Source of the DNA: Acidobacteriota bacterium
Lineage (GTDB): Bacteria > Chloroflexota > Dehalococcoidia > SM23-28-2
Assembly (NCBI GenBank): GCA_048636435.1
Contig: JAIVWR010000001.1
Span: forward strand, 1 to 26,687
DNA: 26,687 bases
Direction of reading: 5' to 3'
This document shows, piece after piece, positions 11,935-26,687 of this stretch. The notes beneath the pieces are model-generated. The model was not told the DNA's origin. It was given only the letters and a program-made list of their open reading frames with translations, and searched no databases. Within the stretch, counting starts at the first letter, position 1, and each line of letters opens with the position of its first letter. Position numbers and translations under genes: made by a program.

Positions 11935-13230
11935 CTAGCCCTCGCTCTCCTCGCTGACCTCTTCCTTCAGCTTTTGCAGCATCCGCTGCCACTCGGCCAG
12001 CTCTTCGCCCTCTTCTTTAGCCGCAGGCGCTGGCTCTTCCGCCTTGGCCTTAGCCTTAGCCTTAGCCTTAGGCTTGGCCTTGGCCTCGGCCTCCTCTCCC
12101 TCAGCCGGCGCGGCCACCGCCTCCTCAGCAGGCGCTGGCGCCGCCACCTCGGCCGCTTCCGGCAGCGCTGCCTCTTCGACGACCACCACTGGCTCCGCCG
12201 CTACAGCCGCTGCCTCCTCGCCACGACCGACCACTGCCGGCAGCCCTTCCTCCTCGATCACCGAGGGGACCTCGACCGGCACTTCCTCCTCCACCGTCTC
12301 CTCGGGCAGGAAGTCTAGCTCCCGCAGGCGCGTCTTGAGCTCATCGTAGGACTTGCGGCCGAAGTTGCGTAGGGCGAGAAGTTCGTCCTCGCTCTTCTCC
12401 AGCACCTCACCCACCGTCATCAGCCCGCTGCGCTTCAGGCAGTTGTAGGCCCGCACCGACAGACTGAGGTCCTCAATGGCCGTGTTGTAGCGGTCGGCCG
12501 TTAGGACCGTGCCCGCACCCAGACCGTGTTCCACCACCGGCGGCGCCGGCTTGCCCAACTGACTGAACGGGGAGAGCTGCTCCAAAAGGATATCGGCACT
12601 CTGGCTCATGGCGTCCACGCCGGTGATGGTTCCGTCCGTCCACGCCTCCAGCACCAGGCGGTCATAGTTGCTGATCTGGCCCACGCGGGTGCGCTCCACC
12701 CTATAGTTCACCTTGCGCACCGGCGTGAAAATGGCGTCCACCGGGATTACCCCGATGGCCAGTTCATCGCTCGCCCCCGCCGGGACGTAGCCATGGCCCT
12801 GCTCCACGTTGAACTCCACCCTCAGCTCCCCCTCCGCCGAATCCAGCGTGGCCAGGTGCAGCTCAGGGTTGAGGATCTCATAGTCCGGCGGAACTTGGAT
12901 GTCGGCGGCGGTTATTCCCCCTTCACGACCGCTCACCTCCAGCAGCAGCGTGCCCGGCTGGTCGGACAGAGCCCGCAGCCGCAGCTCCTTCACGTTCAGG
13001 AGGAACTCGATGGTGTCCTCCTTCATGTGAGGAATGGTAGAGAACTCGTGCTGTATGCCGTCGATGCGCACCGAGGTAATTGCAGCGCCCAGCAGAGAGC
13101 TGAGAAGAACCCTCCTCAAGGAATTGCCCACGGTGGTGCCGAAGCCCGGCTCCAGAGGCTCGGCGACGATGCACACATAGTTGTCGTCGCTCTCCACAAT
13201 CTCAATCTGGGGAACGACCAATTGGGTCAC
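11935..13230 (-). CDS. rpoA: RNA polymerase subunit alpha with a 123-aa acidic C-terminal extension
   Basis: EPLEPGFGTTVGNSLRRVLLSS, DAIFTPVRKVNY, alphaCTD IEDLSLSVRAYNCLKRSG..NFGRKS. GTG start at 13230 with SD GAGGAGG. Confidence 0.97.
   Translation of the reverse strand: MTQLVVPQIEIVESDDNYVCIVAEPLEPGFGTTVGNSLRRVLLSSLLGAAITSVRIDGIQHEFSTIPHMKEDTIEFLLNVKELRLRALSDQPGTLLLEVSGREGGITAADIQVPPDYEILNPELHLATLDSAEGELRVEFNVEQGHGYVPAGASDELAIGVIPVDAIFTPVRKVNYRVERTRVGQISNYDRLVLEAWTDGTITGVDAMSQSADILLEQLSPFSQLGKPAPPVVEHGLGAGTVLTADRYNTAIEDLSLSVRAYNCLKRSGLMTVGEVLEKSEDELLALRNFGRKSYDELKTRLRELDFLPEETVEEEVPVEVPSVIEEEGLPAVVGRGEEAAAVAAEPVVVVEEAALPEAAEVAAPAPAEEAVAAPAEGEEAEAKAKPKAKAKAKAKAEEPAPAAKEEGEELAEWQRMLQKLKEEVSEESEG
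12040..12081 (-). repeat. 6-nt microsatellite encoding KAKPKAKAKAKAKA in the RpoA tail
   Basis: (AAGGCT/AAGGCC)n on the minus strand; TTAGCC repeats visible on the plus strand. Confidence 0.85.
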
Positions 13231-13266
13231 AGAGACCCACCTCCTCACTCTGGCAACAAGCGGTTG

Positions 13267-21257: not shown

Positions 21258-21569
21258 CTAGTCCAGGGACTGATCGCAGTGGCGGCAGAAGCGCACCTTG
21301 CCGCCGTCATCACGGAAGCGAAAACCCACCCGCGTTGGCTTGTTGCAGCTCTTGCAGATGACCATGACGTTGGACACGTGGATGGGCGCCTCCCTTTCGA
21401 TGATCCCTCCGGGGCGGTCGGCGCGCGGTCGCATGTGACGCTTCACTATATTCACGCCGGTGACAATCAGCCGCCTCTGGCGCGGTGCCACCTGACGGAC
21501 CACGCCCGTCTTGCCCCTCTCCTTGCCCTTGATAATCAGCACTGTGTCTTCGCGCCTGATCTTGGCCAT
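21258..21569 (-). CDS. rplX: 50S ribosomal protein L24
   Basis: KOW motif [34 protein letters not shown]. Confidence 0.97.
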
Positions 21570-21571
21570 GG

Positions 21572-21940
21572 CTACACCACTTCCGGTGCCAGGGACACGA
21601 TCTTCATGAAGTTCTTCTCCCGCAGCTCGCGAGCCACCGGCCCGAAGATGCGCGTGCCCCTCGGATTCAAGTCGTCGGTCAGGATGACAGCCGCGTTCTC
21701 ATCGAAGCGGATGTGGCTGCCATCCGGCCGGCCGTACCCCTTGGCCACCCTCACCACCACCGCTCTGACCACCTCGCCCTTCTTCACTGAGGAGCCAGGG
21801 ACAGCCTGCTTGATCGTACCCACGAAAACGTCGCCCACGCGGGCATACCGACGGCGTGTGCCACCCAGCACCCGAATGCACATGATCTGGCGGGCGCCGG
21901 TGTTGTCGGCCACCTTGAGGCGCGTAGACGACTGGATCAT
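21572..21940 (-). CDS. rplN: 50S ribosomal protein L14
   Basis: [47 protein letters not shown] overlap with the rpsQ stop. Confidence 0.98.
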
Positions 21941-22761
21941 GATTCCTGCGTTTCTTCCTTCTCAGACTGCTCTTCCTCTTCAGCCTTCGATTGGTCTTCC
22001 TCTGCCGGCGGCTGCTCTTCCTCCGCGGCCTCCGGCGCCTTCTCCTCTGCCGGCGGCTGCTCTTCCTCCGCGACCTCAGCCTTCTCCTCTGCCGGCGGCT
22101 GCTCCTCTTCCGCGGCCTCCGGCGCCTCTTCCTCTGCCGGCGGCTGCTCTTCCTCCGCGGCCTCCGGCGTCTCTTCCTCTGCCGGCGGCTGCTCTTCCTC
22201 CGCGGCCTCAGGCGTCTCTTCCTCTGCCGGCGGCTGCTCCTCTTCCGCCGCCTCCGGCGCCTCTTCCTCTGCCGGCGCCTCCTCCTCAGCCACCGCTGGC
22301 ACCTCCTCGGCCACTGCCTCCTCCTCCGCTGGTGCCGCCTCTTCCTCAGCCACCGCTGGCACCTCCTCGGCCACTGCCTCCTCCTTCGCTCGTGCCGCCT
22401 TTTCCTCCGCCGCCGCGGCTTCAGCAGCTATCGCCTCGTCCAGTTCCCTCACCTCCTCAGCCACCTCTTCCTCGATGATTGCCTTCTCCTCCTCGGGCAG
22501 GGCAGCGGTCGTCAGGATCTCGGCCACCTGCCAGCGCTTGTCCCGCGATAGGGGCCGCGTCTCCACGATGAGCACCTTATCGCCCACCCGACAGGCGTTC
22601 TCCTCGTCGTGCGCCTTGTAGCGCGTCACCCGCCGCATGATCTTCTTGTACAAACGATGCCGCTTGAGGGACCCAACTGCCACCACCACCGTCTTCGACA
22701 TCTTGTCTCTGACTACCACCCCCACACGGGTCTTCTGGCGACCGTGGCTGACTTTCGCCAT
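21937..22761 (-). CDS. rpsQ: 30S ribosomal protein S17 with a ~187-aa acidic tandem-repeat C-terminal extension
   Basis: Residues 1-87 are canonical S17 (G.VV.DKM.KTVVV, H..YKK, YKAHDE.N, GD.V.I.ETRPLS..KRW); the rest is E/A/P-rich repeat up to the stop overlapping the rplN start. Confidence 0.96.
21994..22260 (-). repeat. In-frame 45-nt tandem repeat, 6 copies (one 42 nt), unit (A/T)[13 protein letters not shown](E/K/D)
   Basis: S17 residues 168-256; near-identical DNA units (TCTGCCGGCGGCTGCTC recurs on the plus strand). Confidence 0.95.
22267..22383 (-). repeat. In-frame 60/57-nt duplication, unit [16 protein letters not shown](A)PAE
   Basis: S17 residues 127-165; two near-identical DNA copies. 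Confidence 0.9.
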
Positions 22762-22762
22762 C

Positions 22763-22993
22763 CTACTCCTTCTCAGCGACCGCCTGCGCGACCAACTGCC
22801 GCTCCTTCTGGATCGTCTTCAGCCGAGCAATCCGCCGCTTGATCTGCCTGATCTGCCGGTAGTTGGACTCCTGGCGGGTCATCCAGCGCAGCCGCAGCGA
22901 GAAGAGACGACGGTGCGCCTCCTCCATCTCCTTGGCCAGGTCGCCATCCGACAGGTGGCGAATCTCATCAGCCCTTCGGTTGACCCTTGTCAC
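22763..22993 (-). CDS. rpmC: 50S ribosomal protein L29
   Basis: C-terminal part of the track's 181-aa ORF: [33 protein letters not shown] start at 22993 (or 22996) right after the rplP stop. Confidence 0.93.
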
Positions 22994-22995
22994 CA

Positions 22996-23421
22996 CTATT
23001 CCCCCAAGGCCGTCGCCTCGCGAGCCACCACCCGTGTGGGAATTGGCAGCTTGTGCGACGCCAGCCGCATGGCCTCCCGTGCCACGTCCTCCTGCACACC
23101 AGCGATCTCGAACAGAATCCTCCCCGGCTTGATCACCGCCACCCAGTGGTCGGGGGCAGCCTTGCCGCTGCCCATGCGCGTCTCCGCTGCCTTCTTGGTC
23201 ACGGACTTGTCGGGGAAAACGCAGATCCACACCTTGCCGCCACGGCGCATGTGGTGAGTGATGGCGCGACGCGCGGCCTCGATCTGGCGGGCGGTCATCC
23301 AGGTGCATCCCAGCGCCTGAAGCCCGAACTCGCCGAACGTCACCTTGTTGCCGGCAGTGGCTTTGCCTCTGCGCCGGCCTCGATGAACCTTCCGATGCTT
23401 CACTCGCTTAGGCTGCAGCAT
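22996..23421 (-). CDS. rplP: 50S ribosomal protein L16
   Basis: [46 protein letters not shown]. Confidence 0.98.
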
Positions 23422-26573: not shown

Positions 26574-26687
26574 GACTTCTTGCCCTCAGTATCCTCAGCC
26601 GGAGGCTCCTCGGCCTTCGCCTCCTCAGCCGGTGGCTCCTCGGCCGGCGGCTCCTCAGCCGGCGGCTCCTCGGCCGTGGGCTCCTCG
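26570..26687 (-). CDS. rplC: 3' end of the gene preceding rplD (probably L3), consisting of an acidic repeat tail; partial
   Basis: Minus-strand frame from 26686 reads EEPTAEEPPAEEPPAEEPPAEEAKAEEPPAEDTEGKKS*, with TGA overlapping the rplD GTG (GTGA). The L3 identity rests only on S10-operon gene order; no L3 core is inside the window. Confidence 0.7.
   Translation of the reverse strand, partial: EEPTAEEPPAEEPPAEEPPAEEAKAEEPPAEDTEGKKS
26597..26686 (-). repeat. In-frame 15-nt tandem repeat, at least 6 units, EEPPA consensus
   Basis: GAGGAGCCGCCGGC(C/T) units; the array runs off the window edge. Confidence 0.9.

Follow-up and report, generated by a model that had tools for sequence, protein, structure and literature searches.

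Why should a ribosomal protein with an ordinary RNA-binding core end in a tail more than twice as long as that core and made to a large part of glutamate? The question is raised by rpsQ, the gene for ribosomal protein uS17 (S17), on contig JAIVWR010000001.1 of the assembly GCA_048636435.1, of which a stretch of 26,687 nucleotides (nt), here called the window, was analysed. An original prediction, made from the letters of the DNA, had set a protein of 274 amino acids (aa) against a core of about 87 aa and had counted by hand 78 Glu and two Asp residues in the tail. The open reading frame (ORF) is indeed 274 aa long, with the Pfam domain PF00366 at aa 14-81 and 187 residues in excess of the core, and the hand count is exact. 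Judged from its gene, the protein is a true uS17 whose polyanionic C-terminal arm is encoded in the genome and conserved in the lineage. The parts of the gene and its two neighbours are the following.

21937..22761, minus strand: rpsQ (uS17), 274 aa, from the ORF, the PF00366 match and the Foldseek top matches, which are all uS17.

22501..22761, minus strand: the canonical S17 core of OB-fold (oligonucleotide/oligosaccharide-binding fold) type, aa 1-87, from the Pfam match at aa 14-81, its charge and an AlphaFold2 model with five strands and a predicted local distance difference test (pLDDT) score >90.

22366..22500, minus strand: the proximal tail, aa 88-132, a predicted long acidic amphipathic helix (AlphaFold2 helix at aa 90-132; genus alignment), with no solved relative.

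22276..22416, minus strand: a 60-nt tandem duplication encoding a 20/19-aa unit at about aa 127-165 (Tandem Repeats Finder, TRF: period 60, 2.3 copies, 92% matches).

21995..22284, minus strand: a 45-nt tandem array encoding six 15-aa units, one of them of 14 aa, predicted to be disordered (TRF: period 45, 6.5 copies, 88% matches, score 454).

21937..21993, minus strand: the last 18 codons and the stop, with the Shine-Dalgarno sequence of rplN (AGGA, 21944-21947) and the ATGA stop/start overlap.

21572..21940, minus strand: rplN (uL14), an ORF translationally coupled to rpsQ, the two overlapping by ATGA or GTGA wherever rpsQ is complete in the order (38 of 38).

22763..22996, minus strand: rpmC (uL29), upstream of rpsQ, with the AAGGAG Shine-Dalgarno sequence for rpsQ in its 3' end.

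The minus strand of the window carries the S10-spc-alpha cluster of ribosomal genes, in which rpsQ lies between rpmC and rplN, its ATG preceded by the AAGGAG sequence and its stop overlapping the start of rplN, as had been claimed. The Ribosomal_S17 domain (PF00366) is recognized at 98 bits against a curated cut-off of 25.9 (E 3.3e-28). The closest sequence matches in the Protein Data Bank (PDB) are bacterial uS17 chains, aligned over aa 4-87, and the top 50 Foldseek matches in the PDB are all uS17, with target-normalised template modelling (TM) scores of 0.7-0.95 for bacterial and plastid chains and of 0.33-0.54 for the longer yeast mitochondrial chains. There is one S17 match per genome in 41 genomes, including the present one (G000), where the long form is the sole S17 gene found; this last statement is limited by the source being an incomplete metagenome-assembled genome (MAG; 78% complete, 226 contigs, 1.37 Mb) of an uncultured Chloroflexota bacterium from marine sediment. 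Hence, by its domain score, its OB-fold core and its single-copy gene between rpmC and rplN, the protein belongs to the uS17 family.

The tail (aa 88-274) consists of 78 Glu, two Asp, 47 Ala, 22 Pro, seven Lys and two Arg among its 187 residues, i.e., 42% Glu, 25% Ala, 12% Pro and 5% Lys plus Arg. Its net charge is -71 versus +14 for the core (isoelectric point, pI, 11.0), bringing the whole protein to -57 and a pI of 4.2. AlphaFold2, run on an alignment of 51 sequences, predicts a helix at aa 90-132 (43 residues, net charge -12, pLDDT 70-78) and leaves aa 133-274 without secondary structure (pLDDT 40-47). Together with TRF, this agrees with the proposed succession of a helix-like segment, a 20/19-aa duplication and six 15-aa units. 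More specifically, the model and the alignments indicate an arm of three parts, viz., a motif directly after the core that is found class-wide, the family-specific acidic helix at aa 90-132 and about 140 Glu/Ala/Pro residues predicted to be disordered. Being acidic, of low complexity, poor in basic and hydrophobic residues and predicted to lack a fixed structure, it has the character of an intrinsically disordered polyanion of the entropic-bristle type, and the long polyanionic extension that had been postulated is thus borne out. No homology of the tail to Pfam families or to solved chains was detected.

That the tail is a property of a lineage rather than of one contig emerges from its distribution. 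We extracted rpsQ from 40 genomes of the order; all 38 complete genes encode an acidic tail and overlap rplN by ATGA or GTGA. The tails measure 23-187 aa, with a net charge per residue of -0.15 to -0.43 and at most 15% Lys plus Arg. A survey of S17 length and repeat number across the clade had been put forward as a check, and in this one the tail is conserved across the order. Complete S17 proteins of the genus have 196-274 aa (tails of 109-187 aa), the one in the window being the longest. Other genera have amplified units of their own, such as five copies of an 18-aa unit (G027), three of a 14-aa unit (G035), and two each of a 30-aa block (G011) and a 38-aa block (G001); these units differ, yet the composition of the tails is alike. 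We discarded the stop-to-stop length of open frames as a proxy for protein length, as upstream frames stay open (in G018, 332 aa against a real 122 aa).

In a further sample of 20 genomes of the class, biased in having been picked for long open frames, six other families show acidic tails of 80-178 aa, with repeat units of their own in five of the six; long acidic repeat tails are seen in families f62, f31, f28, f57 and f74. The tails of other families have fewer Glu and more Ala, Pro and Val. The class is probably Dehalococcoidia, the nearest named database records being labelled 'Chloroflexi bacterium' and 'Dehalococcoidia bacterium'. Throughout it, a motif of the type V-A/P-E-V-x-P-x-x-I/V follows directly after the core, and in MAGs of the Dehalococcoidales this motif is the entire tail of 9-10 aa. 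Outside Chloroflexota, the median tail is 1 aa among 80 loci picked by core similarity, while a search limited to long proteins returned 810 S17 relatives of 150-480 aa from public data. Apparent tail matches found by tblastn in Thermodesulfobacteriota, cyanobacteria and Eubacterium were rejected, most tails being 2 aa upon extraction. The sole long tail in the 80 loci beyond the near relatives is that of a cyanobacterium (Hormoscilla MAG, locus L035), a 50-aa Ser/Pro/Glu/Ala repeat of the SPEAPKSPEAS type. Metagenomes of 18 studies contain DNA nearly identical to that of the window, their sources being marine sediment, cold seeps and a hydrothermal vent. Our literature search found no paper on acidic uS17 tails or on ribosomal protein extensions of Chloroflexota.

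The substitution pattern suggests what has been kept in these tails. Compared with the closest congener that aligns cleanly (G006, a single-contig genome), the proportions of nonsynonymous and synonymous differences (pN/pS) are 0.036/0.11 in the core, 0.034/0.29 in the proximal tail and 0.070/0.34 in the distal tail. With a pN/pS of about 0.2 against this closest relative, the tail is, as far as these gene comparisons go, under moderate purifying selection on composition. Where the genus alignment has Glu, 29 columns show the synonymous GAG/GAA transition, 13 show Glu/Lys and nine show Glu/Gly; in the absence of selection, these three single transitions would be expected at roughly equal frequency. 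Across the genus, residues 88-115 hardly vary and have an amphipathic spacing of Ile, Val and Leu. For the six units in the window, the values are 0.046 (pN) and 0.285 (pS). As this unit pS exceeds the core pS of 0.11 against G006, and as the array is common to G006 and another congener, G008, the array predates the splits of these species. The units are therefore not "nearly identical in DNA", as had been stated, and the recent expansion deduced from that is only partly right, given 28% synonymous divergence between units and an array shared with two congeners. The disordered part would lengthen and shorten by in-frame gain and loss of tandem units, such that the composition (acidic, with few basic or hydrophobic residues) would be retained and the sequence would not. 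Length variants in four other data sets (two of DNA, two from RNA libraries) have net changes of -150, -324, -249 and -138 and, four times, +3 nt, all multiples of 3; they were matched at a likeness of at least 90% and may come from other species.

The original prediction took in-frame indels as a sign of selection for translation. The gene is indeed in frame throughout and coupled to rplN, but the logic is weak. The +1 frame has two stops in the proximal segment, is then open across the array and is 64% Lys plus Arg overall, and the +2 frame is full of TGA; frame-breaking changes would consequently be removed, through a polybasic peptide in the one frame and through stops that uncouple rplN in the other, whether the tail is useful or not. 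The persistence of the tail across the order, taken together with a pN/pS below 1, is better evidence of selection than the keeping of the frame. A different constraint appears at the extreme 3' end, where the last 18 codons have a pS of 0.00 against both G006 and G008, i.e., silent sites are conserved too. Because these codons hold the Shine-Dalgarno sequence of rplN, which order-wide usually lies within the final, Glu-rich-reading codons of S17, this conservation is at least partly an RNA constraint. It is plausible, we infer, that this GA-rich end of rpsQ was the seed of the Glu-coding repeats.

What might such an arm do? In the small subunit, uS17 and uS12 lie on opposite sides, and uS17 is in contact with helix h21 and uS8 (PMC11711686). 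With uS17 placed on the solvent side of the 30S body, the arm should project into the cytoplasm; an arm of this composition should be unable to bind rRNA and should extend into solvent. We propose that selection maintains a disordered polyanionic arm at the solvent face of the 30S subunit, where it would act through its charge and bulk, a reading of sequence and model for which we consider the chances evenly balanced. Before assembly, the arm would offset and solubilise the very basic RNA-binding core; after assembly, it would form part of a hydrated negative brush that keeps ribosomes off each other and off stray RNA and polycations. The roles suggested earlier for the tail, namely cis-chaperone, RNA mimic and spacer, would be plausible. 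Several points weigh against the proposal. Tails measure merely 23-49 aa in another family of the same order (f2) and, as said above, 9-10 aa in the Dehalococcoidales MAGs; the long arm is therefore not essential. The tails on different ribosomal proteins are not coordinated across families, that of bL31 being long mainly in the family of the window (f1) and that of S17 in most families of the order. Ambiguous alignment inside the repeats makes the pN/pS values rough, and a pN/pS below 1 as well as the keeping of the frame would also be expected of a merely harmless tail. Finally, the evidence for the tail comes from nucleotide sequence, and at the level of protein the tail is a prediction.

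Some alternatives question the reality of the repeat or place its importance elsewhere than in the peptide. That the array is a collapsed, inflated or chimeric product of assembly is barely credible. It is true that contigs assembled by Logan at k=31 break within the array with none spanning it, and that the MAG of the congener G008 (locus L016) has a run of N within its rpsQ repeat array. But the latter tells us that such genes can break assemblies and says nothing against the array of the window, and the Logan contigs of the best-matching DNA run tile the entire array with 0-2 mismatches. Furthermore, the longest exact repeat in the tail DNA is 43 nt, which reads of 100-150 nt resolve; G006, in its single contig, has an array of the same 15-aa unit in an S17 of 228 aa; and such tails are present in 38 independent genomes. 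For the first three of these reasons (tiling contigs, short exact repeats and the G006 array), the array looks correctly assembled, its count of six copies resting on the assembly plus tiling contigs with no contig across it. Contigs from RNA libraries also cover portions of the tail, a coverage that is no proof of transcription and is silent on translation. Highly improbable, too, is the notion of a contingency or tunable-length element, by which rapid changes of copy number within populations would switch or tune ribosome properties. Copy number does differ between congeners and shorter in-frame forms co-occur in other metagenomes, but those variants may, at the likeness used, belong to other species, and all of them are in frame, so that no change turns the gene off. 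Moreover, simple-sequence tracts look different from units of 45-60 nt whose exact repeats do not exceed 43 nt and whose synonymous sites have diverged by 28%. This part of the original prediction is not supported. A role at the RNA level, in which 30S subunits land or pause on the purine-rich tail RNA upstream of rplN, so that translation of the downstream spc genes is tuned and the peptide is of secondary importance, is very unlikely in our estimate. What speaks for it is that the RNA of the tail (21940-22500), directly upstream of the coupled rplN start, is 74% purine and packed with GGAGG (20 in 561 nt, or 35.7 per kb, versus 0-7 per kb in neighbour genes), and that a promoter scan found no sigma-70-like promoter in the rpsQ-rplN region. 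Yet this motif density follows directly from Glu and Pro-Glu-Ala codons, changes from Glu to Lys and from Glu to Gly, which would leave the RNA rich in purines, occur 2-3 times less often than the synonymous one, and other families' tails, as noted, have fewer Glu and more Ala, Pro and Val.

The remaining alternatives concern the peptide itself. In one, the arm docks specifically, with the proximal helix or a short motif of the tail binding a defined partner (an assembly factor, a hibernation factor or a neighbouring ribosome) and the repeats acting as a flexible tether. The near-invariance and amphipathic spacing of residues 88-115, the predicted 43-residue helix and the class-wide motif after the core would all fit; the candidate arm, however, has no known partner, and its helix is family-specific, with prolines at the same place in family f5, and finds no match among solved structures or in Pfam. 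We regard docking as unlikely. The stronger challenge is that the tail is a tolerated by-product with no positive function, arising by nearly neutral birth and loss of units at a solvent-exposed C-terminus whose GA-rich 3' end is prone to duplication, while harmful versions (basic, hydrophobic, frameshifted or uncoupling) are purged. This would account for the wide variation in length (23-187 aa in the order, 109-187 aa in the genus) and the fast turnover of sequence, for the existence of short-tailed relatives (f2 and the Dehalococcoidales MAGs), for the lack of coordination with other ribosomal protein tails and for the placement of the rplN Shine-Dalgarno sequence in the last, Glu-rich codons in most of the order, and with a +1 peptide so rich in Lys and Arg it needs no benefit from the tail to explain the kept frame. 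Against it stands the persistence of the tail, which every one of the 38 complete genes of the order encodes and which several further families have as well. This runs counter to the usual deletion bias of bacteria, and the cost is about 187 additional residues in a protein of which one copy is made for each ribosome. Nor does it sit well with a near-invariant stretch of 28 proximal residues and a pN/pS of about 0.1-0.2 against the closest relative. On these grounds, we hold a tolerated by-product to be a serious but less likely alternative and favour the selected polyanionic arm.

The S17 arm would also be one of a set of similar tails on the organism's RNA-binding proteins. When every open frame of the assembly was scanned for stretches of 40 residues containing at least 40% Asp plus Glu, 23 matches were obtained, of which many are spurious antisense frames; the unambiguous genes, that of S17 included, encode mainly RNA-binding proteins. 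The principal cases, in the assembly (G000, identified by Pfam) and in the window, are listed below; most of the tails of the first five have tandem repeats.

G000 contig C34, 8400-9137: bL25, 245 aa, with an acidic tail.

G000 contig C107, 3145-4884: bS1, with a tail of about 130 aa that has a 12-aa unit four times.

G000 contig C19, 9218-10822: NusA, with a tail of about 160 aa that has VEEQP six times.

G000 contig C63, 506-886: bL31, 126 aa, with an acidic tail.

G000 contig C46, 7934-8335: KhpA, 133 aa, with an acidic tail.

Window, 11938-13248, minus strand: RpoA, 437 aa, in which the C-terminal domain of the alpha subunit ends at about aa 310 (Pfam) and is followed by a Glu/Ala/Val/Pro tail of about 127 aa with a AKAKPKAKAKAKAKA island.

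Window, 26574-26687, minus strand: the gene before rplD, probably rplC (uL3), cut by the end of the window, with 15-nt repeats of the PAEEP type at its end and a GTGA overlap with rplD.

In the window, bL17 ends in nine Glu residues and uS3 in an acidic stretch. As a separate observation on the same cluster, uL24 (21258-21569, minus strand) has a CxxC...CxxC pair in its C-terminal half, which suggests a zinc-binding form. A broader and more tentative idea, which we consider rather unlikely as a whole, is that the S17 arm is part of an encoded and selected acidic coat on the translation and transcription machinery (uS17, bS1, uS3, uL3, bL17, bL25, bL31, NusA, KhpA and RpoA), a hard-wired counterpart of polyglutamylation of the RimK type that alters the physical behaviour of ribosomes. 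Were this so, ribosomes might, for example, be kept dispersed and free of stray RNA and polycations during very slow growth or dormancy in sediment.

Placed among known forms of uS17, the protein shares with the canonical bacterial versions (e.g., those of Escherichia coli and Bacillus subtilis; 80-88 aa solved) the OB-fold core, the position between rpmC and rplN and 42-54% identity to solved chains, but the canonical versions end at the core. None of the bacterial uS17 chains in the PDB is longer than 135 aa or has a C-terminal acidic tail. In Thermus thermophilus, uS17 (about 105 aa) likewise has a helix directly after the core, and Foldseek alignments to Thermus chains run over 91-96 columns. 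That extension, however, has about 20 aa and lies within the folded 30S subunit, whereas here a predicted helix of 43 residues with a charge of -12 is followed by about 140 residues predicted to be disordered. A phmmer search with aa 65-135 for similarity to the Thermus-type extension matched only the last strand of the core (query residues 1-27), at E 0.03 or worse. Lineage-specific enlargement of uS17 is also known from Mycobacterium and Cutibacterium, with N-terminal extensions, and from the mitochondrial uS17m, with long extensions; these are N-terminal or are structured fillers in ribosomes with reduced rRNA. We considered and rejected a comparable compensation for lost rRNA in the present case: the 16S rRNA of the congener G006 (locus L130; 1480 nt) covers the whole bacterial model, and over model positions 1 to about 718, the stretch for which the alignment was displayed, only h17 is shortened, with about 16 nt missing. 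The helices that surround uS17 are of standard appearance. It follows that the tail does not make good a loss of rRNA.

Most of the extensions studied so far on bacterial ribosomal proteins are basic and buried in rRNA. Set against these, the S17 tail is, by its sequence and predicted structure, an unusual lineage-specific extension, in being long, acidic, disordered and built of repeats, and in being kept across an order and recurring in other families of the class. Burial of this kind is impossible for an arm that is long, acidic and disordered; yet the arm has been kept order-wide and recurs in an abundant uncultured group, which points to a property of the ribosome surface in bacteria that has not been studied. 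At a practical level, a repeat-bearing rpsQ may break short-read assemblies, the gap in G008 being exactly there, and may upset alignments of a protein much used as a marker. Known acidic tails, such as the C-terminal domain of Hfq, the tip of SSB and the tail of HMGB1, compete with nucleic acid for their own protein, and unstructured solubility tags of Ala, Glu, Pro, Ser, Thr and Gly have been engineered. The S17 tail resembles the former as an acidic disordered tail on a basic nucleic-acid-binding domain and the latter in its restriction to Glu, Ala and Pro, but the likeness to Hfq, SSB and HMGB1 lies in a possible mode of working and not in family membership, and here it consists in charge complementarity (core +14, tail -71). 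If the arm aids solubility, assembly or dispersal, it would represent a natural and evolvable way of handling very basic RNA-binding proteins.

By analogy, the nearest functional counterpart is the polyglutamylation of bS6 by RimK, which gives another protein of the small subunit a C-terminal poly-Glu tail and changes the proteome in Pseudomonas (PMC4741518, PMC7343187). RimK (PF08443) was not found in G000, G006, G011 and G023, three of which are single-contig genomes, and was found in 13 of 14 control genomes; bS6 has no long extension, its stop-to-stop frames of 120-167 aa being upper bounds on the length of the protein. The RimK tail is added post-translationally, comprises few residues and is regulated, whereas that of uS17 is written into the gene and comprises 187 residues. 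If the uS17 arm does aid solubility, assembly or dispersal, it would be a genome-encoded parallel to the regulated polyglutamylation of bS6.

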